From positions 416,001-480,000 of the forward strand of contig CAVOHZ010000010.1 of the NCBI GenBank assembly GCA_963695855.1: DNA of 64,000 nucleotides, in the 5' to 3' direction. A program made the position numbers and the translations under genes. Under the pieces are notes generated by a model. The model was not told where the DNA came from, did no database searches, and saw only the letters and a list, made by a program, of their open reading frames with translations. Origin of the DNA: an uncultured Nitrososphaerales archaeon. GTDB taxonomy: Archaea > Thermoproteota > Nitrososphaeria > Nitrososphaerales > Nitrososphaeraceae. Positions 6,666 through 59,000 of this stretch are shown here, piece by piece (the first letter of the stretch is position 1; every line of letters begins with the position of its first letter).

Positions 6666-7382
6666 TTAGTCGATTTCCTTTCCTATATCTTCTATATCTG
6701 TCTTGTCTTGAGAGGATCCAATGCCAAATTTTTCTAGATGAGATTTAAGCTTGGTTGGTTGGGCGAAAATTTTCATATCATCATGATAACTTTCAATTAC
6801 TTCACAATTGATATTTTGAATATCGCCATCATCGAGATCGAAATCGATTATAATATCAAAGTTTTCACCACAATCAAAAGTGTCCGCTCCTTTTCCTCCA
6901 ATCAATACGTCAGTACCCAGGCCTCCATAAAGTTCATCATCACCTTTTCCTCCCACTAATAAGTTTGAACCTATACTAACCTTTAGAATATCATTACCAG
7001 GACCTCCGAATATTTTATCGTCGCCTCCCGCGCCTGAAATTTTATCATTTCCGTCATCGCCATATAGTACATCATTACCCTCTGCCCCTTGGATAACATC
7101 GTCTTTTTCAAGCCCTCTCACAAGATCCCCTGCATTACAACCACCAGGTCCTGTATTAAGTGGTGAAAATGGGCAACCCACAATTACGTCATTACATTTT
7201 GACCCAATAGTTGTAGTACCAGTACCTATTATGACATTGGCATCCTTCTTATCACAATCTTGCTTGGCTACTACGTAGACTACAAGTTGCTCAGAAAATA
7301 TCATAAAAGAAAATATTGGTGCAATAATTACTATTGAAATCACAATTTTATAAAATGACATTAAAGGAATAACATTAATCAA
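6666..7382 (-). CDS. Secreted calcium-binding protein with RTX/hemolysin-type GGxGxD repeats
   Basis: Repeated GxxGxDxLxG nonapeptides; signal/TM segment. Confidence 0.9.
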   Translation of the reverse strand: MINVIPLMSFYKIVISIVIIAPIFSFMIFSEQLVVYVVAKQDCDKKDANVIIGTGTTTIGSKCNDVIVGCPFSPLNTGPGGCNAGDLVRGLEKDDVIQGAEGNDVLYGDDGNDKISGAGGDDKIFGGPGNDILKVSIGSNLLVGGKGDDELYGGLGTDVLIGGKGADTFDCGENFDIIIDFDLDDGDIQNINCEVIESYHDDMKIFAQPTKLKSHLEKFGIGSSQDKTDIEDIGKEID

Positions 7383-13378: not shown

Positions 13379-14527
13379 ATTCCCATACTTTATCAAAAAT
13401 ACACTGGATATTATGCGAAACTAGTATTGGAAAATGGTAAATCTTTTTCTGGGACAGGATTTGGTTATCCCATGCCGAGCTCTGGTGAAGTCGTTTTTAA
13501 TACAGGAATGGTTGGATATACTGAGAGTTTAACGGATCCATCTTATAGTGGTCAAATATTATGCATGACCTACCCTCTTGTTGGCAATTATGGAGTCCCA
13601 CAGAAAGACATTTTAGATGAATTTGGTTTACCCAAATTTTTCGAGTCAGAAAGAATACAGGTCAAAGGATTGATAATTCATTCATTATCAAATATAGCAA
13701 GTCATTGGAGTTGTGTAAAAACACTAGATGAATGGTTATATGAAGAAAAAATTCCGGGAATATACGGAGTTGATACAAGAGAACTGACAAAAATAATACG
13801 CCAAAAGGGAGTAATGATGGGAGTTTTATCCGTCTCTGAAAAACCACTTCAAAAAATAGACATATCTCAAATTGTTAAAAATGAGGATTATGACAATAAA
13901 AATTTCATGTCTACAGTAAGTTCCAATGAAATTAGAACGTATGGCAATTCCAACGAAAAGATTATTGTATTATTAGATACAGGAACTAAGTATAGTATTA
14001 TTAGAAATTTACTGAAGAGGGGTTATAGGGTAGTACAACTTCCTTGGAATTCATCGTATGATAAAGTAATATCTTACGATCCAGATGGGGTTGTAATTAG
14101 TAACGGTCCTGGAGATCCAAAGATGTGCAATGCAACAATCGAGACGGCAAAAAAATTGCTAGATAATTCAATTCCAACACTTGGTATATGTCTTGGCAAT
14201 CAGATTTTGGCCCTATCAGCAGGAGCAGACACGTATAAATTAAAATATGGTCACAGGGGACAAAACAAATCATGTATAAATATTAAGAATGAAAATTCCT
14301 ATATCACCAGTCAAAACCATGGATATGGAATAGAAGCCAAAAGTCTAGAAAAGACGGGATTCGAGCCATGGTTTTATAATCCAGATGACAAATCTATAGA
14401 GGGTATAATACATAAAGATAAACCTGCAATAGCCGTACAATTTCACCCAGAGGCATCACCAGGACCTTTTGATTGTACATTTGTTTTTGATAAATTTAAA
14501 GAAATTATTAATTTAAATAAGAGATAA
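13379..14527 (+). CDS. carA: Carbamoyl-phosphate synthase small subunit (start uncertain: ATT 13379, ATA 13385 or TTG 13427)
   Basis: GEVVFNTGMVGY, TDPSY, SNGPGDP, GICLG, QFHPEASPGP. Confidence 0.95.
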   Translation: MPILYQKYTGYYAKLVLENGKSFSGTGFGYPMPSSGEVVFNTGMVGYTESLTDPSYSGQILCMTYPLVGNYGVPQKDILDEFGLPKFFESERIQVKGLIIHSLSNIASHWSCVKTLDEWLYEEKIPGIYGVDTRELTKIIRQKGVMMGVLSVSEKPLQKIDISQIVKNEDYDNKNFMSTVSSNEIRTYGNSNEKIIVLLDTGTKYSIIRNLLKRGYRVVQLPWNSSYDKVISYDPDGVVISNGPGDPKMCNATIETAKKLLDNSIPTLGICLGNQILALSAGADTYKLKYGHRGQNKSCINIKNENSYITSQNHGYGIEAKSLEKTGFEPWFYNPDDKSIEGIIHKDKPAIAVQFHPEASPGPFDCTFVFDKFKEIINLNKR

Positions 14528-14577
14528 AAATTACCATATTAAACCTATATAAAAAAAATGTAAAAATAGAGTGAGAG

Positions 14578-17500
14578 GTGAAAATAATTCCAAGAAATAA
14601 TGATATAAAAAAAGTTGTTCTGTTGGGTAGTGGGGCAATAAAAATCGGAGAAGCAGGCGAAAGTCATTAGAAGATGACCGCTAATTTGATTACTCTGGTT
14701 CACAATGCCTCAAAGCTCTGAAGGAGGAGGAAATTGAAACAGTTCTAATTAATCCCAATATTGCTACTATTCAGACGGATACCAGGTTTTCTGATAAAGT
14801 ATATCTTTTGCCTATAACTCCTGATTATGTTTCCAATATTTTAGAAATTGAAAGACCAGATTCTATAATGCTATCATTCGGGGGACAAACTGCCCTAAAC
14901 TGTGGTACATCATTATTCAAAAACGGAATTCTTGATAAATACGGAATAAAAGTCCTTGGAACACCAATTAACGGAATAGAAAGAACTGAAGATAGACAAC
15001 TTTTCAAAGAGGCCATGCAGACAAGTAATGTTCCTGTATTACCTAGTTCTCCAGCATATTCTGTTGAAGAATCAATTCATATTGCAAAAAAAATTGGTTA
15101 TCCTGTAATCATTAGGGTTGCATACACTCTCGGAGGAAAGGGAGGAGGAGTTGCCTATAACGAATATGAATTACAAGAGATAGTACATAGAGGCCTTTCA
15201 GTCAGTATGACCGGTCAAGTTTTAATAGAAAAATATGTTGGTAATTGGAAACAAATAGAATACGAAGTAATGCGAGATTATAAAGGAAATTCTATAATTG
15301 TTTGCAATATGGAAAATATTTTGGCTATGCGAGTTCATACAGGGGATAACATTGTAGTGGCTCCATCTCAGACTCTTAATAACTACGAATATCATATGTT
15401 GCGTTCTGCAGCGATCAGAGCAACAAAAGAAGTAGGTATTATTGGTGAGTGTAATATTCAGTTTGGACTCGATCCGAAAAAAGAGGAATATTGTGCAATA
15501 GAGATAAATGCAAGACTCTCTAGATCATCGGCACTTGCTAGCAAAGCAACTGGATATCCGCTAGCATATATGGCTGCAAAATTGGGTTTGGGATATTCAC
15601 TAAACGAGTTAGTAAATAAAGTTACCAAGAAAACTACTGCATTTTTTGAACCATCTTTAGATTATGTAGTAGTAAAGATGCCTAGATGGGATTTTAATAA
15701 ATTTGAGAATGTTAACCGTAGACTCGGAACTGCTATGAAATCAGTTGGAGAAGTAATGGCTATTGGAAGAACTTTTGAGGAATCAATTCAAAAAGCAATA
15801 AGAATGTGTGACATTGGAAAGAAAGGACTGGTTGAAAACTATGAATTCAATGAGCCCAACGAAGAAGAGTTAGAAAATATTGAACACGCACTTTTGTATC
15901 CCGATGACAACATCCTTTTTGACGTTGTGAGAGCAATATACAGCGGTATCACCATAGAAAAGATAAATGAATTATCCAGCATAGATCCATGGTTTCTTGT
16001 CAAAATAAAGAACATAATAGACATGGAAAGAAGGTTGAAAAATTCGGGAAATGATTTTGATGAAAGCCTCATAAAAGAAGCTAAACAAGCAGGGTTCTCT
16101 GATATACAATTATCTTCTTATTTAAAATTGGATGAAATAACAGTTAGAAAACTTAGGAAAAAATTTGGAATACAACCAGTCATAAAACAGATTGATACCT
16201 TGGCTGCCGAATGGCCTGCTCAAACTAATTATCTTTATCTTACCTATGGTGGTGATACCGATGATATCAAAATTAGAAAGAAAGATAAGAATGCAATAGT
16301 TCTGGGAGCAGGTCCGTATAGAATTGGAAGTAGTGTAGAATTTGATTGGGGTACTGTTAATATGGTTAGAGGTTTGAAAGAAAATGGAATAAATGAAGTA
16401 TCAATAATAAACTGTAATCCCGAAACAGTTTCTACAGACTTTGATATTTCTGACCGGTTATACTTTGAGGAGATTACCTTTGAAAGAGTTATGGATATTT
16501 ATGAAAAAGAAAATGATGCTGAAATAGTAACCTGTGTGGGCGGTCAAACTGCTAACAATCTAACGTTAAAACTGGCCCAAAATGGAGCAAAAATAATAGG
16601 AACAGAAAGCAAAGATGTGGACAGGGCTGAAGACAGAGAAAAGTTTGGGAAATTACTTGATTCATTAAAGATTAAACAGCCTCCTTGGAAAAAATTTACA
16701 AGTCTAGATGAGGCAATTATCTTTTCTCAAGAGGTAGGATATCCCGTGCTTGTGCGACCGTCATATGTATTAAGTGGAGCAGCAATGAAGGTAGTATGGG
16801 ATGACAAACAGTTGGAAATATTTATAGAAAATGCCACAGAGGTCAGCCCGGATCATCCAATAGTTATTAGTAAGTTCTTTCAAGATGCTGCAGAAGTAGA
16901 GGTGGATGGAGTAAGCGGGAAAGACAAAATAATTATTGGATCCATTATAGAACACATAGACAACGCCGGAATACATTCAGGTGATGCGATGATGTGTATA
17001 CCTCCATGGAGATTAAATAGGGATATAATGGATACAATAACAGGCTATTCAAATAAAATAGTCAAATCTCTCAATGTCATTGGACCATTTAACATTCAGT
17101 TTCTTGTAAAGAATGACGAAGTACTTGTAATCGAGGCAAATATCAGGGCATCAAGGTCAATGCCTTTTGTTTCTAAATATGTAGGGATAAATCTGATGAA
17201 TCTTGCCGCAAAAGCGATGTTAGGTAAACCTCTACCAGAGATAAAGGATGTATGGTTGAAAACCAGCGGCTTTGGTATTAAAGTACCTCAATTCTCTTTT
17301 ATGCAACTAGAAGGTGCCGATATAGTTTTAGGTGTAGAGATGCATTCTACTGGAGAAGTTGCGTGTTTTGGAACAAGCTTTTATGATGCTCTAAGTAAAG
17401 CCTTCCTAGCCGCAGGATATTCGCTGCCGTTACGTGGAACTTCTTTAATCACAATAGGAGGCCAAAAAAATAAGGAAAAATCACTTCCTCTTCTGTCTTT

Positions 17501-18974: not shown

Positions 18975-19814
18975 ATGATCATTAGCGGAGTCGAAGTCTC
19001 GACCAAATTAAAATCTGAATTAATACAAAAAGTTAAAATTCTGAAGAAAAAAGGAATTGATCCGTGTTTAGCTACCATTTTGGTGGGCAATGATCAGGCT
19101 TCTGCAATTTATATTAGAAATAAACATAAAGCCTGTTCTGAATTAGGAATTAAGACGAAAGACAAGACGATGCCATCTTCAATTGAAGAAGAAAAACTGA
19201 TCGAATTGATAAATTCATTAAACAATGATCTATCTGTTCATGGAATATTATTACAGTTACCTCTTCCCAGTCATATAGATCAATTCGAGGTAATAAATAA
19301 AATTAAACCTACAAAAGATGTTGATGGATTAACATACCAAAATGCAGGATTACTATTAAACAAAAAATCATCTTTGATACCCTGCACACCTCTAGGAGTT
19401 ATGGAATTATTTAATTACTACAAAATAGAACTAAAAGGAAAAGATATCGTAATAATAAATCGAAGTATTCTAGTTGGAAAACCACTTTTATTGCTGTTAT
19501 TGGAGAAGGATGCAACCGTAACAATATGTCATTCAAAAACTAGAAATTTGGAGCTAAAATTGAGAAGGGCAGATATAATAATCACTGCAGTTGGAAATAG
19601 AAAACTTTTTACTCTAAAACCAGAACATGTTAAAGAGGATGTAGTGATAATTGATATCGGAATATCAAGAGAAAATGGAAAGATAATCGGTGACACAGAT
19701 TTTGAAAAAGTTGCACCAAAAGCTTCTTGGATAACACCAGTTCCAGGAGGAGTTGGTCCAATGACTATTACAATGTTATTAAACAACACTATAAAAGCTG
19801 CATCAAATTTTTAG
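18975..19814 (+). CDS. folD: Methylenetetrahydrofolate dehydrogenase/cyclohydrolase
   Basis: HGILLQLPLP, KDVDG, PCTPLG, TPVPGGVGPMT. Confidence 0.97.
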   Translation: MIISGVEVSTKLKSELIQKVKILKKKGIDPCLATILVGNDQASAIYIRNKHKACSELGIKTKDKTMPSSIEEEKLIELINSLNNDLSVHGILLQLPLPSHIDQFEVINKIKPTKDVDGLTYQNAGLLLNKKSSLIPCTPLGVMELFNYYKIELKGKDIVIINRSILVGKPLLLLLLEKDATVTICHSKTRNLELKLRRADIIITAVGNRKLFTLKPEHVKEDVVIIDIGISRENGKIIGDTDFEKVAPKASWITPVPGGVGPMTITMLLNNTIKAASNF

Positions 19815-19838
19815 AACCTTATTAGTGTACACTAAAAA

Positions 19839-20444
19839 ATGTCATACCAATCTTCTAAGCAGGAAATTCGAAAAAAAACATTAAACAAAAGAAATCAATT
19901 ATCTGAGAAAGACCGAGTTATGTTCAGCAAGATAATATTTGACAAGTTAATAGAATCACAAGAATACAAAAAAGCAGATCGAATCGCAGTTTATTATCCA
20001 GTAGGTTCTGAGGTACAAACTTTGGAGATTATAAGAGACGCATTAACAAACAAAAAAAAAGTTGGTCTTCCAAGAGTAATTAACGATGATGAAATAAAAT
20101 TTTATCAAATCATGGAAAAATATTTAGAAGAAGTTGAATTTACTAAAGGGAAATACGGTATTATGGAAAATATAGATTCAACAGTCGAATTGGATCAGAT
20201 CGATCTTTTGATAATACCAGGGGTGGCATTTGATGTTGAGTGCAACAGAATTGGATATGGCAAAGGATATTATGATAGATTTCTGGGTCAGAATGATATT
20301 GGATATATAGTAGGATTAGCATTTGAAAATCAGATAGTCAAGTACATTCCCATAAATGAATTAGATCAAAAAGTTGATTGCATTATAACAAACAAGAATA
20401 ATTATTATCATAAAATCAATAGAAAAAGAATTAAAATTTTATGA
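19839..20444 (+). CDS. 5-formyltetrahydrofolate cyclo-ligase
   Basis: PGVAFD..RIGYGKGYYDRFL. Confidence 0.95.
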   Translation: MSYQSSKQEIRKKTLNKRNQLSEKDRVMFSKIIFDKLIESQEYKKADRIAVYYPVGSEVQTLEIIRDALTNKKKVGLPRVINDDEIKFYQIMEKYLEEVEFTKGKYGIMENIDSTVELDQIDLLIIPGVAFDVECNRIGYGKGYYDRFLGQNDIGYIVGLAFENQIVKYIPINELDQKVDCIITNKNNYYHKINRKRIKIL

Positions 20445-21707
20445 GAATCTTTTTCCAATATCATTTCTATAGTACTGATAATTGTGCCCCCAATGAATCA
20501 TTTTTACTGCTGAATAGGCATTTATTCTGGCTGCATTGAAATTCTCGCCTAATGCGGTAACACCTAAAATCCTGCCACCATTGGTGAGAACTTTATAATC
20601 CCTTAAAATAGTTCCTGCGTGAAATACCATAACATTATCATCAAATTTACTATCCAAACCATAAATTACATTCCCTGTTTCGTTCTTTATGGGATATCCT
20701 TTCTCTGCCATAACTACGCATATAGCAGGTTTTTCAGACCACTCAATGTCAGGTAATATATCCAAATTTTCATCAATTGAAGCATCAAGATATTCATATA
20801 AATCTGATTTCATACGCATCATTATAGGCTGGCATTCTGGGTCACCCATTCTTGCGTTAAATTCAAGAACATAGGGTTTAGATGTTTCCCTGTCTATCAT
20901 CACACCTGCATAAAGAAATCCTTTGAACGCATTGTTATGATTTTGCATTGAATTAATTGTCTTTTCCATAATATTTTTCATTATATCATTAAAGAGAACG
21001 TCATCAACTAGTGGCGAAGGAGAAAAACTACCCATTCCTCCGGTGTTAGGACCTTTATCATCATCATATATCCTCTTATGATCTTGACTGGTAGCAACAG
21101 GAATAATTTTTTTTCCATCAGAAATGCCAATGAAAGAAACTTCATTTCCATAAATCCTTTCTTCAATCACTACTTTATCCCCGGAATCTCCAAATTCTTT
21201 CTTGATCATGATTCTATTGATAGCATCTATAGCCTCGCTTTGAGAATCGCAAACGATCACACCTTTTCCAGCAGCTAGTCCATCTGCTTTGATGACCAAT
21301 TGTTTTTCAGTGTTACGTATGTATTCCATTGCATTTTCTGGATCTGTAAAGATTGAAAAATCTGTAGTAGGGATATTATTATTTTTCATGAATAGTTTTG
21401 CGAATGACTTACTTGATTCTAGCTGTGCTGCCTCTTTTGTTGGACCAAATATCTTAACACTGTTGGACAACTCATTAACTATTCCCTTTGTTAAAGGTTC
21501 TTCCGGACCAACTACAATCATACAATCGTTCTGTAATGCATACGATCTAATTTTTTCAAAATCACTAATTTTGAAATCTAGGTTTTTTGATGTCCCTCCA
21601 TTGCCAGGAGCGAAAAAAACATTTTGTACTGATTTGCTCTTGGAAAGTTTCCATCCCAATGCATGTTCTCTCCCTCCAGAACCAACGATCAATACGTTTT
21701 TGTTCAA
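20439..21707 (-). CDS. purD: Phosphoribosylamine-glycine ligase
   Basis: GSGGREHAL, KADGLAAGKGV, GPNTGGMG, EFNARMGDPE. Confidence 0.97.
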   Translation of the reverse strand: MNKNVLIVGSGGREHALGWKLSKSKSVQNVFFAPGNGGTSKNLDFKISDFEKIRSYALQNDCMIVVGPEEPLTKGIVNELSNSVKIFGPTKEAAQLESSKSFAKLFMKNNNIPTTDFSIFTDPENAMEYIRNTEKQLVIKADGLAAGKGVIVCDSQSEAIDAINRIMIKKEFGDSGDKVVIEERIYGNEVSFIGISDGKKIIPVATSQDHKRIYDDDKGPNTGGMGSFSPSPLVDDVLFNDIMKNIMEKTINSMQNHNNAFKGFLYAGVMIDRETSKPYVLEFNARMGDPECQPIMMRMKSDLYEYLDASIDENLDILPDIEWSEKPAICVVMAEKGYPIKNETGNVIYGLDSKFDDNVMVFHAGTILRDYKVLTNGGRILGVTALGENFNAARINAYSAVKMIHWGHNYQYYRNDIGKRFS

Positions 21708-22227
21708 TTATAGTTGGTAAATAGATCGCACATAATATTTCTTACATAATGATTTTTATAATTTTTCTATTAAAATTGAAATGATGAAATTTCAATTTCA
21801 TGATACACAAAAAAAAGATATTTAATGAAGAGGCAGGTTAACAATTGAAAAATATTAGTACCGAGTAAAAAACGTATGATTGCCATCAACTACAAAAAAT
21901 CTAGATGGTATTGACTTTTAAGAATGAAAGTAAGAAGTAGAAAGTAGAAAATTATACATTTAAAAATACTCATTTAAGTGTAGATTTAATTTTCACGATC
22001 CTTACTTTTTCCATAAGCTGTTCCTCAAAAGATGTCCAGAAAGCAAAGTAAATTGAAAATCATTACAAAAAAATCATTTTTCAGTCTGACGTGACAAAAG
22101 AGAGATAGCAAATACTCTTCAAAAGGAGATATAATCTTCTTATCTGTTCAAAATTAACATTTTTGATTGGTGTTATTCAGGATTATTTCAGTAAGACATT
22201 TAAAAATTTAAATAAAATTTTAATAAA

Positions 22228-22539
22228 TTATCTGCTTAAGGTATAGTTCCAAGATAGGACATCTTTGAGAAGGGATGTAAGAAAACCAACATATTCATCA
22301 TCTTGAAATTCTACCTTATCATATTCTTTTAATCTTAATGCCTCAGCCAATGATTTTAAATGGATACACCTATCCTTGCCAGAGAGAGTTTTAAAGAAAT
22401 AATATTTACAAGTACAATAATCTAAATCCAGATCTAACCAATATTCATTGTTCTTACTAACTATTGTCCAAATTTTTCTATTGCTTGGAAGAAAAATATG
22501 AAGTTTTATCCTACTGTACGAATTAACAGCATCTGTCAT
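22228..22539 (-). CDS. SWIM zinc-finger-like protein
   Basis: CTC..(13 aa)..CIH. Confidence 0.75.
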   Translation of the reverse strand: MTDAVNSYSRIKLHIFLPSNRKIWTIVSKNNEYWLDLDLDYCTCKYYFFKTLSGKDRCIHLKSLAEALRLKEYDKVEFQDDEYVGFLTSLLKDVLSWNYTLSR

Positions 22540-22586
22540 TTGAATATGATATATACAATTTTGACATGCCTAAAATTCCTTTTGAA

Positions 22587-23204
22587 TTACAAAATAATTA
22601 CTTTTCTACCTTCCACCTTTAATCTGTTTTCTGCAAATAACTTTACTGCCTGAGGATACAATTTATGTTCCAACTCTAATATCCTATTTGAAATATCTTC
22701 TTCAGAATCAGTTGTGTAAACATTAACTGCTTGTTGAAGAATAATTGGTCCCGTATCAACCTCATCATCAACAAAATGAACAGTACATCCGGACACTTTA
22801 ACACCGTAATCCAGTGCCTGTTTCTGTGCGTGTAATCCCTTAAATGAGGGTAGTAACGCTGGATGAACATTCATTATTCTAAATTTATATTCATTTACAA
22901 ATTCCGTACTAATAATTTTCATATATCCTGCAAGACAAATCAATCCATTTGATGGAAGAACATTATATGACCGTAATATTGATACTATCTCTTTATCATA
23001 ATCCCATCCTTTCTTCCCATTACCTAGAACAATTTCAGTAGGAATATTAAAATCATTTTTAGCGATTTCTAGTCCAATAGCATCTCCCCTGTTTGAGATA
23101 ACTACAATCGGGTTCACATTCTTTATATTGCCACTAAAGATAGAAGAAAGGATGGCCTTCATATTACTGCCCCTGCCAGAAATAATGATTGCGAGATTTA
23201 TCAT
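22587..23204 (-). CDS. purN: Phosphoribosylglycinamide formyltransferase
   Basis: SGRGSN, NVHPALLPSF.G, GCTVHFV..EVDTGPII. Confidence 0.97.
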   Translation of the reverse strand: MINLAIIISGRGSNMKAILSSIFSGNIKNVNPIVVISNRGDAIGLEIAKNDFNIPTEIVLGNGKKGWDYDKEIVSILRSYNVLPSNGLICLAGYMKIISTEFVNEYKFRIMNVHPALLPSFKGLHAQKQALDYGVKVSGCTVHFVDDEVDTGPIILQQAVNVYTTDSEEDISNRILELEHKLYPQAVKLFAENRLKVEGRKVIIL

Positions 23205-32528: not shown

Positions 32529-32990
32529 ATGTATAAACTTAATAATCGTTTAATACCAATCATCACATTATTAATTCTAGCGATCTTAGCCAATTTATCA
32601 ACATCACCAGGAATGGCACAAACCACAGGTAATGAAACCAAAGAAAAAACTGAAGAAACTTCGCAAACAGAAAAACCGTTTTTTTTCTTATTTAATTCTG
32701 AACTGCCTGCATTTAACGTGACAGAATTTCCACCAGATGTTTTCTCTCAAACAACATTAGAGGTCAATCAGGGAGATGAAGTCAAGATATTTATGTACAA
32801 TCAGGAAGCGCCAAATGCCGATCGACACTCATTTACTATAAATGCACCATATAATATCAATTTAGACTTGGGACCAGGCAAAAATGGAAATGTAACTATT
32901 AACGCAGATCAACCTGGAATTTATAGATTCTACTGCGAATATCATGAACCAACTATGAGTGGACAATTCGTTGTATTGCCTAAAGGATAG
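32529..32990 (+). CDS. Cupredoxin (type-1 copper) protein
   Basis: His plus YCEYHEPTM; signal peptide. Confidence 0.9.
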   Translation: MYKLNNRLIPIITLLILAILANLSTSPGMAQTTGNETKEKTEETSQTEKPFFFLFNSELPAFNVTEFPPDVFSQTTLEVNQGDEVKIFMYNQEAPNADRHSFTINAPYNINLDLGPGKNGNVTINADQPGIYRFYCEYHEPTMSGQFVVLPKG

Positions 32991-39915: not shown

Positions 39916-40425
39916 CTATTTTGCATGTACTATGATTTTGCCTTTCATTTCTGGATGAATACTACAATAATAATCAAATGTTCCAGTTTTGTTTGCACTG
40001 AAAGTTACAGTTTGACTCTGGAAATATCCTAAATCTCCTGTATGAACGTTAAATTCATCAATGTTTAGATTATGTTTAGAATGTTTCACTGAATCTTCAT
40101 TAATTAAATGCATTGATAATGAATTACCTTGAGTAAGAGTAATTGTAGGATTATGACCAAATCTTCCTGCACCACTATTTAATGATTTAGCTGTCCCTGT
40201 AGATTGACTGGTAAATAAGTAGCCTGTATTTTGGGAATACATCGCTTTAAGGAAAATGTTTCTGGGTGGAGAAGATAAAAAAATGCCATTAGAAGTTTTC
40301 AAGGCATTTATCCCTCCATAAATGATTAAACCTCCTATAGTAAATAAAATTCCTAAAATAATAATTCTTTTTTTAGATAAATTTATAGTATTTTTTTTAT
40401 TAATTGTCTTATTTCTTTTATTCAT
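39916..40425 (-). CDS. Membrane-anchored cupredoxin
   Basis: HNLNI plus YYCSIHPEMKG. Confidence 0.9.
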   Translation of the reverse strand: MNKRNKTINKKNTINLSKKRIIILGILFTIGGLIIYGGINALKTSNGIFLSSPPRNIFLKAMYSQNTGYLFTSQSTGTAKSLNSGAGRFGHNPTITLTQGNSLSMHLINEDSVKHSKHNLNIDEFNVHTGDLGYFQSQTVTFSANKTGTFDYYCSIHPEMKGKIIVHAK

Positions 40426-40587: not shown

Positions 40588-41055
40588 TAAGACTTAAGAG
40601 ATGTCTTATTTTAAATATCCATACGAAGCAGGTTTATTGATTATTGCAGAGAGACAGAATTTATTTAATGATAGACATTTTAACAAAATTAACTGAATTT
40701 GGAGAAATAAACCAATCTTCTCTTTTGCTTTATTGTAGATTAAATTTAACTAAACATAAAGAAATTTTTGATGAGTTAGAAGAAAATAAATTTATTGAAA
40801 GAACAGAGTCTTTTTTAGGAAAAAAGCTCATTATCACTTATAAAATAACTATAGAAGGACTAGAATTTTACAAGAAAATCTTAGAACCATATGAAAAATT
40901 TTTCCCAAGAAGATAACTCTGAATAAGATAATTATAAAGAACGAGGATTAATCAAAACTCATGATTGTTGTTCTTTCCCATCGGCATCATCTATTTCCAT
41001 TTTGAATTTTTTTGCTATGTATTTATTAAGATCATCTTTATCCTTTTTGAATGAT
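40588..41055. repeat. Direct repeat copy 2 (~468 bp)
   Basis: See copy 1. Confidence 0.95.
40644..40916 (+). CDS. Winged-helix regulator, copy 2
   Basis: Protein identical to 39145..39417. Confidence 0.85.
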   Translation: MQRDRIYLMIDILTKLTEFGEINQSSLLLYCRLNLTKHKEIFDELEENKFIERTESFLGKKLIITYKITIEGLEFYKKILEPYEKFFPRR

Positions 41056-41199
41056 GTATTTGCAAGAGAGTAGTTTGAGTACTCCCCTTATCGATTTGTC
41101 TATATTTAAAAAGGCTCTATTTAATTAAGCAAAATTTGGGAGAAATATTAAAAACTCACCAAAATTGGCCACAGTAACGATATTGATTTTCTAAATCCT

Positions 41200-42110
41200 C
41201 TGCTTGTATGATGATACGTTGTCTGTTCTGATGACCAGATCTTGTGGTATTATGTTCTTGTGTGTTACCAGAGCATTTTCTATCGATATTATAGCGTTCT
41301 CTTTTACTACAGACAGATCAAAACAGTAATCAATCCATTCCATTGTGAATAAATCAAATACATTGAATAGGTAAACCCATCTATCAATACCACAGTGTAG
41401 GAAGGTATGATCTACTTCCCATACCTGGTTTGGTTGCCTACTCTTACATAGGATCCTTTTGATCGTATAATTTCCTTCTTACTTTTAGATGATGTAATAT
41501 AACCCGTCTTTCTGAAGATTCTCTGTATCCTCTTTCTGTCGATTGGTCTACCTAATAGTGTGTCAAAATTGCATTATAGCTATTCTTCTTGTATCATAAT
41601 AAGTTGGTCTTGGTAGTGCTGCAGTGACTGCAGCGACTCGCGCAATATGATTTGTATGATATTTCTTCTGTTCGCTGTGCCGATTGTTGTTGTAGTACGT
41701 ATTTTTACTACAACCAGAATATGTCAGTGTCTTTAAGACCCATCGTACCGTTGTTTAATATTGTTCTGATCACTGCTAACCTTTTCTTCCTGTTTCTAAC
41801 GTTTCTTTAAATGCATCTATTGCTATTGTCTGTTCACCAATAATCTTCTTTAGTCTCTCAATCTCTCTGCTTCTTTGTTATTTTTTATTCGTATTGTATT
41901 TATTGCAAGCTGAAAGTGCCATCCTACCACAATCTATGAATTTCTGTTTCCAGTTGTAGAACACGTCTCGAATGAGATTCTATTTTCTTCACAATTCAGC
42001 TACCGTGATATTTGTAGTCAATGATTCCATTACAATCCCTGTCTTGTCTTCTGGTGTACATCTTCCAGTAATATTCTCTTTCTTTATCTTTAACACCCTG
42101 CACCTGCATG
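41200..42110 (-). mobile_element. Decayed IS3-family element (OrfA and OrfB remnants)
   Basis: OrfA-like TPEDKTGIVMESLTTNITVAEL..FYNWKQKF..IERLKKIIGEQ; rve-like PNQVWEVDHT..YLFNVFD..LVIRTD; many stops; boundaries approximate. Confidence 0.75.
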
Positions 42111-42948
42111 ACCTCATTCTATACTTGTTATAATGATAGGAGTAAAAGAGTGTCCATTACAAGATGTTCTCATTTTCAATGGGTCCAGACTAATTTTTTA
42201 TTATCAAGAGTGTATTTGAAAGATCGATTCAATGGACTATCATGTTTTTCATTTTCTATTACATTCTTTGCTTCAAAATATTCTAACCTTTTTTGATCTC
42301 ATCACAGTCATAACCAATATAAGTCAAATTTTTTTGATATGTATGTTCCCTCAAAATTTTGGTGTCTCGATTCAAATTTAGCAACAAATATATCAATATT
42401 ATTTAGTTCAACAAAAAGAGTAATAATATCAATTATTCGTAAATAGACTTTGTATTTCTAGTACTAATTACTTCAACGTAATTTTAACTTGAAAGATAGA
42501 ATATCTGTTATCTCAATTACAATATATTATACAGTTTCCATATCTTTGCTAAAACGATATCCTGAGATTGAAAAACAATGTGACTTTTTTATTCTTATGT
42601 TGATTATGATCTGGTTATAAACAACATAATAAATATCATTTAAATTTATATTTAAAAAATAGTATAAGTTAATAGGTAAAAATTGTATTATCATGTATTC
42701 TATGATACAGAAAAATAATCTAAATGGGTATAATATTTAGCTTCCACTAAGTTAGTCAAAAATCTATTAGTAATAACTTCATAGCAATTAAGTATATGTT
42801 AAGATAACACCAATAAAAAAAGTCATCAGATGAATACTAGTTTCTTGAATTACCCTCATTTTTGATATTTATAATTATTTGTAATCATGTCAATTTATTT
42901 TCAGTCTAATTTCTTTCAAATAATTAAACCTACTAAAATAAATATAAA

Positions 42949-43785
42949 TCATGATGCTTGGATATTTACTATGCCTGTTTTTGCAAGTTCAGAACCTATA
43001 CCATATCCTACTAACGCTATACCGGTTCCTAGTCCCGCCATTTCTATTCCACCTTTGATCCAGTTTTTTTTTGCTAGACGAGCCTTTATGGCACCAATCA
43101 CAAATGAAGAAACAATACTCATAACAATAGCTAATCCAATCCCAGTCATAGATGACATTATTCCAGCTTTAACTACAAAATAAGGCATTATTGGAAGGAT
43201 GCCTCCTAATAGAAATGAACCAAACATCACCAAGGCACCTTTTAATGGGCTCCCTAGAATGTCTAAATTAAGCCCTATTTCCTCAGTCAACATAGTCTGG
43301 AGCCATACTTCTTTGTTTGAGGTTATCTTTTCTACAATTTTCTCGAGATCCTCTCCTTCAAATCCTTTTGCACGGTAAATGTTTTCGATCTCCAGTCTTT
43401 CTTCATCAGGTCTATTTTCTATCTCGTATTCTTCACGTTTTATTTCTGATTCTAATATTTCCCTTTGCGATTTTACAGCAAGGTAATTCTGGACAGCCAT
43501 TGCCTTAGCCCCTGTAAACATTCCTATTAATGCAGCAAGAATGACAACATCGGCTGTAATTACAGCTCCTCCTACACCCGCTACAATTCCTAAGGAAGTG
43601 TTAACACCATCTCCAAAGCCGAATACAAAATCTCGTATGTAATTACTTTCTTTGATATGTGGTTCTGGATGTATATTAAAATTAATCAACATAAATGTAA
43701 TAATTTCCAATTTATTAAATGTAACTAATATATGGAATTTTACTATGAATCTATTCCGGATAATCAAGAAATTTATATCCATCAA
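42949..43785 (-). CDS. VIT1/CCC1 family Fe/Mn transporter (start may be 43692)
   Basis: IRDFVFGFGDG, MAVQNYLAVKSQRE, SFLLGGILP. Confidence 0.92.
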   Translation of the reverse strand: MMDINFLIIRNRFIVKFHILVTFNKLEIITFMLINFNIHPEPHIKESNYIRDFVFGFGDGVNTSLGIVAGVGGAVITADVVILAALIGMFTGAKAMAVQNYLAVKSQREILESEIKREEYEIENRPDEERLEIENIYRAKGFEGEDLEKIVEKITSNKEVWLQTMLTEEIGLNLDILGSPLKGALVMFGSFLLGGILPIMPYFVVKAGIMSSMTGIGLAIVMSIVSSFVIGAIKARLAKKNWIKGGIEMAGLGTGIALVGYGIGSELAKTGIVNIQAS

Positions 43786-44166: not shown

Positions 44167-45040
44167 TTAAACCCAGTTATACAATGATACTTTTAATAGC
44201 ATCTCTTTCATCATGTTCTCAAATCTTATTGCAGTAACATATGCTCCAAACATTCTTTTGATACAGGAGAAGATAGTTTTTTTTACAATCCATCGCTGTT
44301 CATAGATAAGGCTATACTTCCATTGTTGTATGTTAGTTTTCTGTGATTGTACACTCCTGTCTCTGAGATAGTAATTGGTCTTTTTACACCTAACATTCTT
44401 TCTTACCATAATTGCAGGGTTCGTTTCCCTAAAGGATAGAAATTGAAAATTTTTGTTACTAATATAGGAACCTTCCATAATGGTAGTTTCTAGTTCCTTA
44501 TTCTGCTTTATTGTTATATCATCTGCTAGTTCGGGGAAAACTTTTCCGTCATCTACTTGCTCACTGATTATTTTTAATGATAGAATTCTTTTCTTTTTAA
44601 TACCAACAGCTAGATGTATCTTAAGATAGCCTCTTTTGACATTCAACTTGAACCTAATCCATTCTCCTCGGTTGCTTACTTTCATACCAGTACAATCAAT
44701 TGCTATCACAAAATCATTATCATGTATGTTAAAATCTTGGCTTATTTTGATATTCAGTCTGTTTATTCGTCCCATTCTATTGCTATAATCAGTGATTGAT
44801 GATACTGTATTTGGAGCATGTGCTGTTACTGGATCTGCAGTCTTTCTATACGGTAAATGAAAATAGGTTCTCAAATGACCTAATAACTTGCTAAATGAAT
44901 ATGGATATACGAACTTTCCATCTTCCTTACATTCGTTCATCTTTTCTAATCAGTATCAGAGTTATCAATAACATCAAAATCAAGTAATATGTTTCCTCTC
45001 CTAACCAGCAGGGATTCTTAGTATCTATTCCAATGCCATA
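44167..45040 (-). mobile_element. Degenerate IS5-family transposase
   Basis: AIDCTGMKVSNRGEW, GYLKIHLAV, RWIV..FSCIKRMFG; the N-terminus (LVRRGNILLDFDVID) is upstream and out of frame. Confidence 0.85.
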
Positions 45041-53252: not shown

Positions 53253-53774
53253 ATGATAGATAAAAGAAGAACTCATCAAAATAACGAGAAAAAAAAGAGC
53301 AAAAAATGTTTAATATCAATTAAGACTTTTGTCATTGTTTTGTTCGCAGCGTTGACTACTGTTATTGCAAATATCGCAGTAAATTTCGATAATGGAAATG
53401 GAATATTAATGATGCCCGGAATACCTACTGCAAATGCTCAGCAGTCAACCTCCGGAGAAAATGGAATTGTAGATTTAAAGGTTTCAGAGAGAAATGGTAA
53501 CTTCGTATGGGAATCCGGAGACAATAAGGTAAATCCACAAATTAACATGAAAGCAAATGCTGTCTATAGTATTCAATTGGAGAGCATGGATGGAAACAAC
53601 ATAGAACATCAATTGGTTATACAGACAAAGGATGGTAAAGAATTAGTAAAATCGGCTGAAATCTCCAATGGTGAGACAGACGACTTCTCCTTTACACCTA
53701 AAACTATTGGAACCTATGAGTATCACTGTGAATACCATCCACAAACAATGAAAGGAACAATAATTGTATCCTAA
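53253..53774 (+). CDS. Cupredoxin (type-1 copper) protein
   Basis: HQLVI plus YHCEYHPQTMKG. Confidence 0.9.
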   Translation: MIDKRRTHQNNEKKKSKKCLISIKTFVIVLFAALTTVIANIAVNFDNGNGILMMPGIPTANAQQSTSGENGIVDLKVSERNGNFVWESGDNKVNPQINMKANAVYSIQLESMDGNNIEHQLVIQTKDGKELVKSAEISNGETDDFSFTPKTIGTYEYHCEYHPQTMKGTIIVS

Positions 53775-53840: not shown

Positions 53841-54947
53841 ATGATCCCAAACTCTTTCTATAAACAATTTGTTATAGTTGTTTTTCTTGTGTTAGTATAT
53901 TTATTTGGAAATAATATACAATATTTTTTTATTTATGGAGATTTTGTTGATACATTAAATAAAATTCAAAATTGTAATGATGGAAAGATTATCGATAGAG
54001 TATTATCTGGTTCTAATTTTGATAGTTATAGTAAACAGGGTTTTAACACTCCACAAAATTTTCATCATATCAAAAAATTCAACTCTAATGGCGATTTAAT
54101 TGATAGTTGGGGCATAAAAGGATCAAAAGATGGTCAATTTCTACATCCCCACGGAATCGGCTCTGATTCTAAAGGAAACATATTCGTAAGCGACGCCGTA
54201 TTGTGTAATATTCAGAAATTTGATAAAAATGGTAAATTCTTGTTGAAATTTGGTAAGAGAGGAGATGGACCTGGTGAATTCTTACAGCCAGAAAGTATTG
54301 CTATAGATAAGAATGATAATGTATTTGTAGTTGATTATGTTACTTCACATATCCAAAAGTTTGACAATGATGGTAACTTTATTACAATGTGGGGATCAAA
54401 AGGAAATGGAACAAATCAATTTATGAAGCCATGGGGAATAGGAGTAGATTCTAAAGGTTATGTTTATGTAGGTGATCAGGAAAATCCAGTCATCCAAAAA
54501 TTTGATAACAATGGAAATTTTGTTAAGAAATGGGGTTCCTATGGATCCAAAGCAGGAGAATTTGTTCATATTCATGATGTTACCTTGGATTCAGTAGATA
54601 ATGTCTATGTAACTGATGGCAGAGATAATTCTAGAGTTGAAAAATTTGATAGTAACGGCAACTTTATTACTATGTGGGGATCAAAAGGAAGTGATAAGGG
54701 TCAATTCATAGAAGACCATGGGATAGCAGTAGATAAATCAGGATATGTATATGTAGCAGATACAAGAAATGTAAGAGTACAAAAATTTGACAGTAATGGT
54801 AACTTCATTACAATGTGGGGATCTCTTGGATGTAAAAATGACCAATTTTTAATACCTCATGATATAACAATTAGTCCAGATGGAAACATATATGTAAGTG
54901 ATAGCGGAAATGTACATTTTAGACAAAATTACATGTGTAATCCTTAG
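53841..54947 (+). CDS. NHL-repeat beta-propeller protein
   Basis: Repeated IQKFD.NGNFI..WGS.G...GQF..P.GI.VD. Confidence 0.93.
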   Translation: MIPNSFYKQFVIVVFLVLVYLFGNNIQYFFIYGDFVDTLNKIQNCNDGKIIDRVLSGSNFDSYSKQGFNTPQNFHHIKKFNSNGDLIDSWGIKGSKDGQFLHPHGIGSDSKGNIFVSDAVLCNIQKFDKNGKFLLKFGKRGDGPGEFLQPESIAIDKNDNVFVVDYVTSHIQKFDNDGNFITMWGSKGNGTNQFMKPWGIGVDSKGYVYVGDQENPVIQKFDNNGNFVKKWGSYGSKAGEFVHIHDVTLDSVDNVYVTDGRDNSRVEKFDSNGNFITMWGSKGSDKGQFIEDHGIAVDKSGYVYVADTRNVRVQKFDSNGNFITMWGSLGCKNDQFLIPHDITISPDGNIYVSDSGNVHFRQNYMCNP

Positions 54948-55058
54948 TCATAAATTATTAACATGATCATTTTCATTTAGATAAAGAGTCCTCTTTGGAA
55001 GGTCATAAATTATTAACATGATCATTTTCATTTAGATAAAGAGTCCTCTTTGGAAGGT
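54947..55058. repeat. Perfect 55-bp tandem duplication
   Basis: 54947-55001 is identical to 55002-55056. Confidence 0.95.
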
Positions 55059-56128
55059 ATATTATACTAAACAGCCTTTGTATACGCTTACATATTCTTT
55101 TGTAATTTTGCTTATATGAAATAAAGGATTACATCATACAAGTCAGCCTTTTCCAAATATTTTTTATCATATATCTTGAGATTTTTAGGATGCTTTATGA
55201 TATCGGTGGAATTTATTCTGTCATAGAAACCATACAACGGTTTCTATTCACTCTATAGCATACATTTTACATCGAGAATTTCTTTCTTACATCATTATGT
55301 CTGATATTTTGTTGTTAACCTGCAAAATTTAATGTCTTTTTTATACATGGTTTCTATCTTATCATGGTTTCATTTCAAATACCAGCATCATTTTTTTTGG
55401 GTTGATGTGACTTGTCTGTAGTTCTTTGCCTGTTTCTTTCCATCATCATATTTTTGTGCTTGTTCTACTTTTTGTCTTTTACATCAAGTATCCAAATCTT
55501 TAGTACCGTTTGAAGATGTTCGAAGTTGATTTCGATATCAAGTTCTTCGGTGAGATAATTTCCAGTGACCTCAGACTCCAAGTATTTCTCACATGACCAA
55601 AAATGATGTGTTCATTAAAAGTACAAAAGGTAAAATGTCTCTATATTCATATGTTATACGCATTTTTTACTACCTGTCTTTTTCATTTTCCAAACCACTA
55701 GTTTTTGTCTGGAGTTAAGCTGATACATATCTCTGCACAGACTTAATTAATGTTCACATAGTGTTCCTTCGGTTTATCTTTAAAAGTTCTACCATTACTT
55801 GTGTGGAGCATTACATGAAACCTTCGATAATCTCTCTTGTCTCTACTATTTTTTCAACAGTCGGTAGTATTTTTTTATCAATGACTTTAGACTCTCATTC
55901 TCTGCTGTAATAAGACTGAGATTTTTAGAACCACGTACACACATTTATGATATTGTGATATAAGCTTTATTTACCGAAGAATTTAGACCTTGTAATTATA
56001 AAAATATAGCATCAATTGAGACATCGTACTTCTAGTCGTTTAGTAGAATACTGAATATCTCGGAAAGTGAATAACTGTCAAGTATTCAAGATAAAACAAT
56101 ATAAGAAGACAAAACAGAAGTACATAGA

Positions 56129-57490
56129 ATGAATAATGTTATTGAATATCCACCAGGTCCCAAAGATCTACTTCCCTATAGCATTGCTCGGAAATTTCTT
56201 CGAGATCCTCTTAAAACATTAATTGTCTTATCTGAAACTTATGGTGATATATCTCACTTTAAATTTGGTAAACAGGATGTCTATTTCCTGAATAATCCTA
56301 ATTACATTGAAGAAGTATTAGTAACTAATTACAAGAATTTTATTAAAAGTAGAGGATTGCAGGTATCAAAACGTCTGTTGGGCATAGGTTTGCTTACTAG
56401 TGAGGGCATTTATCATGATAAACAACGACACTTAATACAACCAACATTCTCCCCGACGAGAATCAGATCATACGTTGACGTGATGATTAAAAAAACTCTG
56501 AATAGCTGTGAAAAGTGGAATGAGGGGTCAATACTAGATATTCATAAAGAGATGACACGGCTTACATTGGAAATTATTTGTAAAACCGTATTAAGTTATG
56601 ATATTAAACCGGAGGATGATGAAGTAGGAGATTCACTTCTAACTTGTATGGAGTATTTTAATCGTCTTTTAATGCCGTTTGGTGAATTAATTGAAAAAAT
56701 CCCAATTTTACCAATCAATAAGGGATTTCAAAAAGCCAAAGGAAATCTAGATTCAATAGTTTTTAGAATAATCGACGAACATAGAGTCAAATTAGAGAAA
56801 AATGAGCAAGATAATGATCTATTATTTACTCTTTTACAGGCACAAGACTATGGTTCAGGCATTGGGAAGATGACTGACCAACAATTAAGAGATGAAGTAA
56901 TGACCATATTTTTGGCAGGACATGAAACAACCGCAAATGCGCTTACTTGGACATTTTATTTGTTATCCGAACATCCTACCATCGATGCTAGACTTCAAGA
57001 AGAAATTCATTCGATTTTTTGTAACAAAATAGATATGTCATTTCATGATATCTCAAAACTGCAATATACTGCAAAAGTACTGACAGAGTCTATGAGACTT
57101 TATCCACCTGCATGGGCTTTAGGACGTCAAGCGATTAATGATTGCAAAATTGGAAAATACATAATTCCGTCGGGTTCTATAATCTTAATGAGTCAATATG
57201 TGATGCACCGTAGTCAACATTATTTTCCCGAGCCTAACTCTTTTTATCCTGATCGTTGGACTGATGAATTTAAGAAAAGCCTGCCAAGATTTAGCTATTT
57301 TCCTTTTGGTGGTGGAATTAGAGGTTGCGTTGGAGAACCATTCGCATGGATGGAAGCAATTATCATTACAGCTGTCATAAACAGACTGTGGAAGATGAAT
57401 AGTACATTATCAAATAAGGTTGCTTTGAAACCATTGATAACATTGCGACCAAAGTACGGAATGCATCTGAAAATAACCAGAAGAGAATAA
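56129..57490 (+). CDS. Cytochrome P450
   Basis: AGHETT, ESMR (ExxR), PDRW, FGGGIRGCVG heme motif. Confidence 0.96.
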   Translation: MNNVIEYPPGPKDLLPYSIARKFLRDPLKTLIVLSETYGDISHFKFGKQDVYFLNNPNYIEEVLVTNYKNFIKSRGLQVSKRLLGIGLLTSEGIYHDKQRHLIQPTFSPTRIRSYVDVMIKKTLNSCEKWNEGSILDIHKEMTRLTLEIICKTVLSYDIKPEDDEVGDSLLTCMEYFNRLLMPFGELIEKIPILPINKGFQKAKGNLDSIVFRIIDEHRVKLEKNEQDNDLLFTLLQAQDYGSGIGKMTDQQLRDEVMTIFLAGHETTANALTWTFYLLSEHPTIDARLQEEIHSIFCNKIDMSFHDISKLQYTAKVLTESMRLYPPAWALGRQAINDCKIGKYIIPSGSIILMSQYVMHRSQHYFPEPNSFYPDRWTDEFKKSLPRFSYFPFGGGIRGCVGEPFAWMEAIIITAVINRLWKMNSTLSNKVALKPLITLRPKYGMHLKITRRE

Positions 57491-57662: not shown

Positions 57663-59000
57663 ATGCAAAGAACTTCTACCATTAAAACTACTGTTAAGAC
57701 CAAAAAGGCCTATTCCCCATATGAGAAGTTTTTACGGTCAATCCATACCGAGGCAACCAGAACAGGATACAGTTATTACCTGAAACAGTTTCTGGAATAC
57801 TGTGGTTTTAATAAATATGAACAGTTACTTGTAAACATTTCTACCAAGAAGAAAGAAGATTTGATACGTAGTTACATTCAGTATCTGGTACAGGATAGAA
57901 AATTATCTTATTCAACTGTTAATAATACTACTGCAGCAATTCGTCTATTCTACGTAGCAAATGGTGTCTATCTGGCATTCTGGGAATCTTTGAAAAGTAT
58001 TAAAGGTAAAAATAAACTGATTATTAAGAATCGAACTTACACTGTTGACGAACTAAAATCATTGATTGAATATGCAGATTTGAGGGAAAAAGTTGCAGTT
58101 CTTGTAATGTTGTCAAGTGGAATTAGAGTTGGTGCACTTGCTAGGTTGAGGGTTGGTGATTTAAAGTATAATGAAGAATACAAACTGTATAGGATAGAGG
58201 CCTATAACAACGAGGAAGATGATACTACGGCAAATGATATGTACATTACCTATTGTACCCCAGAATGTGCTACTTATATCAACAAGTACTTGGAGGATCG
58301 TAAGAAAGGGGGTAAGGAAACCATTACTAAGGATTCACCACTTATCACGCATAAAATAGATTCTCCTACTAGAGATAGGAAAAAAAATTCCTATTTAAGT
58401 GTCAAGTCCATAGAAAAGGTGCTATCCAGGTTAAGGTACGATGCCAAAGTTATTGAACCTATTACAATGAAGGAATTGAGGAGGAAGGTAAGGGAGCAAC
58501 CCAATAAAAGGCCGTCTCAATTCATGCGCAAAGAAATAATGAGTACTCACGCATTTAGAAAATTCTTTGATACTGCATGTGTAGACAATAACGTCAACAT
58601 AAACATTATGAAGGCATTAATGGGTCATGATATCGGTCTACAAAAACACTACTACAAACCTGAAAATGAAAATAAGTTATTATCCGAGTACCTGAAGATA
58701 ATCGATGCTCTGACGGTAGATGAATCCTATAGGTTAAGACGCAAGACGGAGAAATTAGAAAAACAGGTTGAGGAAATCAACATATTAAAACAACAGATGA
58801 AGGAAAAAGATCAGGAATGGGGTAACGCATTACAGGATGCGTATTACACAAGTGAAGAATTAGAGACTATGAAAAAAGAATTTACTAAAGTTGTACAAGA
58901 ATCTTATGATTACCAAACCTACACAGAAGCAGAATTAGGGTTTTTAAGAAAACAATTAGAGATATTAAAACGTCAACTAAAAGAAAAGAATAAAAAATAA
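57663..59000 (+). CDS. Tyrosine recombinase/integrase with C-terminal coiled coil
   Basis: SGIRVGAL, HAFRK, LMGH, HYY catalytic residues. Confidence 0.93.
   Translation: MQRTSTIKTTVKTKKAYSPYEKFLRSIHTEATRTGYSYYLKQFLEYCGFNKYEQLLVNISTKKKEDLIRSYIQYLVQDRKLSYSTVNNTTAAIRLFYVANGVYLAFWESLKSIKGKNKLIIKNRTYTVDELKSLIEYADLREKVAVLVMLSSGIRVGALARLRVGDLKYNEEYKLYRIEAYNNEEDDTTANDMYITYCTPECATYINKYLEDRKKGGKETITKDSPLITHKIDSPTRDRKKNSYLSVKSIEKVLSRLRYDAKVIEPITMKELRRKVREQPNKRPSQFMRKEIMSTHAFRKFFDTACVDNNVNINIMKALMGHDIGLQKHYYKPENENKLLSEYLKIIDALTVDESYRLRRKTEKLEKQVEEINILKQQMKEKDQEWGNALQDAYYTSEELETMKKEFTKVVQESYDYQTYTEAELGFLRKQLEILKRQLKEKNKK

Follow-up and report, generated by a model that had tools for sequence, protein, structure and literature searches.

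We analyzed carB, which encodes the carbamoyl-phosphate synthase large subunit, in a 64,000-nucleotide (nt) stretch of DNA from an uncultured, ammonia-oxidizing soil archaeon of the Nitrososphaerales (family Nitrososphaeraceae; assembly GCA_963695855.1, contig CAVOHZ010000010.1, positions 416,001 to 480,000 of the forward strand). This whole 64-kb stretch is called the window below, and positions are counted from its first letter. An initial annotation of the window had proposed that carB is interrupted near its 5′ end by a bulge-helix-bulge (BHB) intron, the type of motif that the archaeal tRNA-splicing endonuclease (EndA) cuts. The genes and features concerned are the following.

13427–14527, + strand: carA, glutamine amidotransferase small subunit, directly upstream of carB (TIGR01368, E 9e-133, 442.6 bits, cut-off 307)
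14578–14661, + strand: carB exon 1, 28 codons from the GTG start to Glu GAA
14662–14684, + strand: predicted carB intron, BHB type, phase 0, 23 nt, between the Glu and Phe codons
14668–14670, + strand: in-frame TAG, ending translation of unspliced mRNA after 30 residues
14685–17882, + strand: carB exon 2, 1065 codons plus stop

The frame that opens at GTG 14578 encodes 28 CarB-like residues up to the motif GEAGE and then runs into Ser-His-stop, while FDYSGSQ picks up at 14685 in a different frame that stays open to 17882. When 14662–14684 is deleted, GAA meets TTT and a collinear CarB of about 1093 residues results, as the initial annotation had claimed. Exon-1 residues 5–28 correspond to positions 2–25 of the NCBIfam profile NF003671, and the first residue of exon 2 to position 26; because these two positions adjoin each other, no residue is lost or gained at the junction. 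Exon 1 likewise covers TIGR01369 positions 2–24, and exon 2 alone scored 1388 bits (cut-off 1027) over profile positions 25–1051, so that the joined product is a full-length match to the CarB family above the curated cut-off (TIGR01369 and NF003671). In solved carbamoyl-phosphate synthase structures, such as 5dot and 1bxr, the motif is unbroken. The second ATP-grasp half, encoded in exon 2 at about 16290–16350 of the window, contains a homologous glycine-rich motif, GAGPYRIGSSVEFDWG, which is also unbroken; the interruption is found in the first repeat only. No second carB was seen within the window. On re-reading 14400–14900, every coordinate of the initial annotation held, including the TAG that would limit the unspliced product to about 30 residues.

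The RNA around the insert has the following elements.

14643–14650, + strand: exon-exon stem, 5′ strand, 8 base pairs (bp) with 14693–14700
14656–14659, + strand: central helix, 5′ strand, GGCG, on the exon side (the GGC codon for Gly and the first base of GAA), pairing with 14679–14682; invariant in 78/78 sequences
14660–14662, + strand: 5′ bulge, AAA, with a predicted cut at 14661/14662; left unpaired by both the minimum-energy fold and the RNAalifold consensus
14663–14678, + strand: intron hairpin (h′), a 6-bp stem (14663–14668 with 14673–14678) and the loop AGAA (14669–14672)
14679–14682, + strand: central helix, 3′ strand, CGCU, intronic; three pairs kept in 73/73 distinct alignment rows
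14683–14685, + strand: 3′ bulge, AAU (AAUU, 4 nt, in the minimum-energy fold), with a predicted cut at 14684/14685
14693–14700, + strand: exon-exon stem, 3′ strand, found in the minimum-energy fold, the pair counts and RNAalifold

The minimum-energy fold was computed on 14635–14708. Its energy was −17.9 kcal/mol, with a z-score of −2.49, and 5 of 200 shuffled sequences were equally stable. Two bulges on opposite strands flank a 4-bp central helix, in which GGCG and CGCU form three Watson-Crick pairs and one G·U; the inner stem includes one U·G. The fold thus reproduced the central helix, the 5′ bulge, the inner stem and the exon stem put forward in the initial annotation, and departed from it on the 3′ side. 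There, a 3-nt bulge closed by A14655-U14686 had been drawn; in the minimum-energy fold the bulge is AAUU (4 nt), and A14655-U14687 and C14654-G14688 are the closing pairs. In the 3-nt register, A14655-U14686 is the sole closing pair. In either register, a cut between the second and third bulge bases falls after 14684.

Same-site inserts and covariation in related archaea

To compare carB among relatives, we scanned species-representative genomes with the first 400 residues of exon 2 and analyzed the best 80 of 177 loci (L-numbers below). All 80 were from Nitrososphaerota, chiefly Nitrososphaeraceae and Nitrosopumilaceae, with 70–99% identity. An insert was present at the identical Glu|Phe boundary in 77 of them. 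Two loci have no insert: L034, from Ca. Nitrosothermus (order Nitrosocaldales), and L040, from the single-cell genome of a marine group I archaeon. Both run uninterrupted from GEAGE into FDYSG; in the remaining locus, L079, the contig end falls inside the insert. The exon 1 motif GSG..IGEAGE was intact in all 77 intron-bearing loci, and exon 2 was free of stop codons over the roughly 380 codons read per locus.

The 77 loci together with the window gave 78 inserts of 21–52 nt, with 56 distinct sequences; 25 inserts were 21 nt and 21 were 26 nt long. Among the loci analyzed, those of the Nitrososphaera and Nitrosocosmicus lineages have introns of 21–27 nt. All inserts share a common plan. A single bulged base, A in 76 sequences and U in 2, is followed by a hairpin whose loop varies; after the return strand of its stem come four bases pairing with the exonic GGCG and then the two last bases. 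The 5′ bulge was AAA in 66 sequences, AGA in 10 and AAU in 2, and the 3′ bulge was AAU in 61, AGU in 9 and AUU in 8. Four pairs form in the central helix of 46 sequences, three pairs plus a G·A in 31, and one sequence carries an inserted base.

Two further features of the collection were observed. In a Nitrososphaeraceae subclade (L004, L010, L011, L014, L017 and L064), the insert has grown to 33–52 nt through A/T-rich loop insertions, with the ends and stem kept. Two contigs of one metagenome-assembled genome (L063 and L070) each carry a carB with a 26-nt insert, a pair that is probably due to mixed strains in the bin and not to a duplication.

All 78 inserts block translation, 44 by shifting the frame and the other 34, all divisible by three in length, by an in-frame stop codon. 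Such a stop was present in 23/23 distinct multiple-of-three inserts, against a mean probability of 0.38 in shuffled sequences, although these counts are not phylogenetically independent. Clades differ in how it arises: the loop or the 3′ end supplies TAA, or the stem supplies TAG. The stops may reflect selection against read-through, which would insert 7–16 residues in a glycine-rich loop.

Base pairs were then counted after aligning the 78 regions with MAFFT, which gave 73 distinct rows. In the inner stem, 95.6% of cells were paired, and four of the five aligned pairs had changed on both sides (for example, U-A 37, C-G 27 and U-G 9 at one pair; C-G 52 and U-A 16 at another). The same-site insert with compensatory changes that the initial annotation had suggested looking for was thus found in 77 of the 80 loci, and compensatory change maintains the BHB structure. 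The outermost pair of the central helix was kept in 44 of the 73 rows and was non-standard, nearly always G·A, in the other 29. The exon-exon stem was paired in 97.1% of cells with one-sided (wobble) changes only, and coding constraint is here inseparable from pairing. For the whole structure, none of 500 shuffles reached the observed covariation score, and 94.4% of cells were paired, as against 15–49% when the 3′ partners were slid by 1–3 columns. Given no prior structure, RNAalifold recovered the inner stem and the 3-nt 5′ bulge, along with three of the central-helix pairs and six of the eight in the exon stem, with a covariation term of −2.42. One candidate covariation at synonymous sites, between alignment columns 24 and 86 (A-U 28, G-C 14, G-U 6, other 25; n = 73), was left uncounted, being confounded by genome G+C.

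Among the last 30 bases of exon 1, the invariant columns are codon positions 1 and 2, and nine of the ten third positions vary; exon 1 thus evolves like a coding sequence. The sole invariant third position is the C of GGC, which is base paired in the central helix. This Gly codon is GGC in 78/78 intron-bearing sequences, compared with a pooled GGC use of 26% in the same genes; in the carB of the window, GGC occurs at 1 of 29 Gly codons. In the two intron-less loci, L034 and L040, the codon is GGT or GGA.

Proposed splicing and competing explanations

On the evidence of the reading frame and its conservation, we take the carB insert to be a real intron, and carB, an essential gene of metabolism, very probably must be spliced at the RNA level. 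It is highly likely, in our judgment, that this is an old, vertically inherited, phase-0 intron of the tRNA type, cut by EndA and joined by an RtcB-type ligase. Anatomy, junction, conservation, covariation and losses were observed; cleavage, ligation and the enzymes responsible (EndA and RtcB) are what we infer. In the pre-mRNA, the exonic GGCG would pair with the intronic CGCU, the intron hairpin would close the 3-nt 5′ bulge, and exon-exon pairing would keep the 3′ side together. A heterotetrameric EndA would then cut between bulge bases 2 and 3, after 14661 and after 14684, and an RtcB-type ligase would seal the exons into an mRNA encoding CarB (about 1093 residues). From unspliced carB mRNA, only a 30-residue peptide would result.

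The initial annotation had placed the cuts after the second base of each bulge. This rule, cleavage between the second and third bulge residues, is stated in the available part of PMC2738675, and the cuts it predicts coincide with the frame-restoring junctions, joining profile position 25 to 26. Eight relatives have an intron ending in U; in these, cuts placed one base earlier at both sites would turn the conserved Glu into Asp. Thaumarchaeota have a heterotetrameric EndA, a type that accepts relaxed motifs, according to the portions available of PMC5829648 and PMC4090602.

Several observations weigh against this reading. A strict hBHBh′ motif requires at least two Watson-Crick pairs in both outer helices next to 3-nt bulges (a footnote in the available text of PMC7714728). 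The h′ side of the carB motif has 5–6 bp and qualifies; the exon-side helix h does not. In the 3-nt register, its single pair was formed in 62 of the 73 distinct rows, and the next exon-side position is a C opposite U or C in every sequence, which blocks a second pair beside a 3-nt bulge; two pairs need a 4-nt bulge. Because the exon-side helix has fewer than two pairs beside the 3-nt bulge, the carB motif belongs to the relaxed class, and its 3′ side is not strictly canonical. The outermost central-helix pair is G·A in 31 of the 78 sequences, mostly in the Nitrososphaera clade. In L074, the intronic strand contains one additional A, so that one of the four central pairs stays in register; this could be a genuine variant, which would then probe how tolerant the endonuclease is, or else an error of sequencing. 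When each sequence was folded alone, the minimum-energy structure contained the BHB core in 67 of 78 and lacked it in the other 11. A permissive BHB scan of the window, which has a G+C content of 31%, returned 1455 plus-strand hits, compared with 1311–1493 in five shuffles. Among the 59 open reading frames (ORFs) of the window, no Pfam family matching EndA or RtcB was found. Finally, many close marine relatives have a carB without the intron: a search of a protein collection with the natural N-terminus of L040 returned matches P0124–P0243, and the junction was intact in 120/120 of the matches listed. Because these relatives do without it, the intron is dispensable for CarB function.

The BHB motif by itself is therefore not beyond chance. 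What is beyond chance is the combination of an exact frame junction with an insert that is conserved and covaries across 77 of 80 related loci. The whole-window BHB scan was dropped, both as evidence and as an intron search, being permissive; a filter for ORF merging flagged in-frame deletions within intact genes. No intron-bearing tRNA was found in the window, which has one intron-less tRNA-Pro, and an Rfam scan of the window reported one tRNA and nothing else.

We analyzed the intron-less proteins further for the history of the intron. Of the 120 matches listed, 119 have an N-terminus in common; their length is mostly 1080 residues, with four of 1083 and three shorter fragments. Several bear the name Nitrosopumilus sp., and contigs longer than 1 Mb encode some of them. 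The intron-bearing L035 is the nearest locus for 117 of the 120 (88–92% identity), and in intron-less proteins such as P0125 the junction residues are those of exon 1 plus exon 2 of L035. The presence of the carB intron is thus polymorphic among fairly close marine relatives.

In a FastTree phylogeny of 80 exon-2 fragments (L079 omitted), intron length follows clades, and L040 falls within Nitrosopumilaceae beside the intron-bearing L036. A second tree was built from 19 loci and 13 protein representatives picked at <95% identity. In this tree, the intron-less group and L035 form one clade (support 0.88), and a different clade, supported at 0.87, places L040 and P0227 with intron-bearing loci; finer placement is unsupported (0.49). 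Because the intron-less group beside L035 and the pair L040/P0227 lie in separate clades, the trees imply that the intron was cleanly lost at least twice in marine Nitrosopumilaceae. The ancestor shared by Nitrososphaerales and Nitrosopumilales would already have carried the intron and passed it on vertically, with the loop drifting in length. In a search restricted to fragments (proteins of 66–210 residues), 104 of 120 listed had an intact junction, most of them distant. The best fragment against an intron-bearing lineage, P0283 (91% over 116 residues to L026), would fit an intron-less relative and a cDNA alike.

Of the alternatives considered, one retains the intron and its splicing as proposed and adds that splicing efficiency tunes CarB synthesis. 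A position 28 codons from the start would suit such a gate, as would retention across two orders and the stop codon kept in 34/34 multiple-of-three introns, more often than shuffling would yield. These stop-codon counts are weakened by shared ancestry, however, and the intron has been lost at least twice in close marine relatives without visible compensation, which leaves this regulatory role unlikely. The initial annotation had suggested that the intron ties arginine and pyrimidine supply to splicing, a claim left unsupported, with many close marine relatives lacking the intron. In a broader form, mRNA splicing by EndA and RtcB would be a regular but overlooked part of gene expression in ammonia-oxidizing archaea and carB the first case to come into view, with its intron, near the 5′ end and bearing a stop codon, as a checkpoint coupling carbamoyl-phosphate supply (for arginine and pyrimidines) to the tRNA-splicing state, or with the excised 21–52-nt circle being functional; we regard this, too, as a doubtful proposition.

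A split or shortened gene, in which exon 1 is a remnant or encodes a separate peptide and CarB starts in exon 2 (for example, at TTG 14808), is very unlikely. Gene callers do produce such models (1024–1124 residues when full-length, 814–963 when partial). However, there is no conserved start codon past the junction, and the called N-termini consist of out-of-frame exon 1 and intron, differing by lineage. Moreover, the exon 1 coding motif is kept in 77/77 loci with variation at third positions only, the missing profile positions 2–25 are contiguous in solved enzymes, and a shortened gene leaves the RNA covariation unexplained.

Ribosomes might instead hop or frameshift across the insert without any splicing, as in phage T4 gene 60. 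The gap in T4 gene 60 is similar in having a stop codon and a hairpin, with matched take-off and landing codons, and in carB a stop codon and hairpin come right after the conserved Gly/Glu codon pair. Yet lengths of 21–52 nt in all three modulo-3 classes fit no single frameshift rule. The last three bases of the intron are UAA, AAA, CAA, CAG, CAU, UAU or AAG, so that a Glu landing codon is found in 0/78. Neither the pairing of the exonic GGCG with the intron 3′ end nor the fixed 2-base bulge offsets would have a role in such recoding, which we therefore consider scarcely plausible.

That carB is a pseudogene broken by an insertion, or the insert a sequencing error, would be a natural reading of an in-frame stop and frame shift in a single sequence, and is practically negligible given the same-site interruption in 77 independent assemblies at 70–99% identity, a window exon 2 that stays open over about 1065 codons and no second carB seen in the window. 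A self-splicing group I or II intron and an intein were also rejected, the inserts being merely 21–52 nt long and each carrying a stop or a frame shift.

Gene annotation and the rest of the window

The initial annotation had expected gene callers to mis-call carB. We compared the 120 public proteins nearest to window exon 2 (query 14685–15584; P0003–P0122), and the true N-terminus was present in none of them. In 118 of the 120, the called start lies in the exon-2 frame, 5–22 residues before FDYSG, and the intron and, where the protein is long enough, part of exon 1 are translated out of frame; the other two begin downstream. The carB genes of Nitrososphaeraceae thus carry a systematic annotation error, with about 28 true N-terminal residues absent, which bears on metabolic reconstructions, pseudogene counts and proteomic databases.

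A folate/purine gene cluster (18975–23201) adjoins carAB.

18975–19811, + strand: folD
19839–20441, + strand: 5-formyl-THF cyclo-ligase
20439–21704, − strand: purD
22587–23201, − strand: purN-like formyltransferase

Elsewhere in the window, an RTX-repeat protein is encoded at 6666–7379 (− strand), and three small cupredoxin-domain proteins, which are typical of ammonia-oxidizing archaea, at 32529–32987, 39916–40422 (− strand) and 53253–53771. A DDE transposase (44167–44937, − strand) and a phage-type integrase (57663–58997, + strand) point to mobile DNA in the window's second half, where there are also stretches with no ORF of at least 70 codons (for example, 40916–42949 and 54947–56129).

Comparison with known systems

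The known frame-interrupting mRNA intron of archaea is that of cbf5, which lies in the catalytic Asp codon of that gene; with carB as its host, the intron described here is not a member of that family. The cbf5 intron was reportedly studied by Watanabe in 2002 and Yoshinari in 2006. In the literature excerpts available to us, it is the only frame-interrupting intron of this type named for archaea, reported in 2002 from thermophilic Crenarchaeota. A 2020 paper, in its accessible portion, names cbf5 as the only additional archaeal mRNA BHB intron besides its own 5′ untranslated region (UTR) case (PMC7714728), and the accessible portions of a 2018 paper (PMC5829648) and a 2025 paper cite the cbf5 work alone for pre-mRNA. 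Full-text literature searches, whose coverage stops short of supplements and subscription journals, returned no mention of a carB intron, and an earlier report is possible. As far as the literature was searched, the carB intron would be the second frame-interrupting archaeal mRNA intron of the BHB type.

If carB is spliced, the tRNA machinery processes the mRNA of more than one gene, among them a central metabolic gene of globally important ammonia oxidizers. The 56 distinct introns and the clean losses also provide a natural test set for how the endonuclease reads relaxed motifs outside tRNA.

As far as the available text of PMC2738675 describes them, cbf5 introns of Crenarchaeota are short, lie in the coding frame, mostly form unconventional BHBs and are cut between bulge bases 2 and 3; they occur in hosts with heterotetrameric EndA, have a patchy history of gain and loss, and are mis-annotated by gene callers. 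By contrast, carB encodes a metabolic enzyme of mesophilic Nitrososphaerota and cbf5 an RNA-modification enzyme, and the cbf5 cut falls inside the catalytic Asp codon, whereas the carB intron is in phase 0 at a Glu|Phe boundary. Splicing of cbf5 is known from cDNA and enzyme evidence, and that of carB is predicted from sequence.

Another mRNA substrate of the splicing endonuclease is the BHB intron in the 5′ UTR of HVO_1309 in Haloferax volcanii, as described in the accessible part of PMC7714728. Unlike the carB intron, it lies in an untranslated leader and leaves the reading frame intact, and its host is a euryarchaeon with a different EndA type.

Compared with archaeal tRNA introns at position 37/38, which have the canonical hBHBh′ form, the carB intron has the same strand order and cut offset, and its size is within the range of 11–175 nt that the available text of PMC2738675 reports for archaeal tRNA introns. 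Both run from an exon helix through the 4-bp helix and a 3-nt bulge to the intron helix, and back through the 4-bp helix and a bulge to the exon helix. The carB intron differs in having no tRNA body, in an exon-side helix that is weak or displaced, and in that one strand of its central helix is constrained by coding.

Outside archaea, the eukaryotic HAC1/XBP1 mRNAs contain a short intron in the coding sequence whose removal bypasses the spliceosome, relies on an endonuclease plus a tRNA-type ligase and changes the downstream frame. The carB intron resembles them as a short, spliceosome-free intron in a coding mRNA that would likewise depend on a tRNA-type ligase. The nuclease of HAC1/XBP1 is IRE1, however, not the tRNA endonuclease proposed for carB, and its splicing serves as a regulated stress switch.

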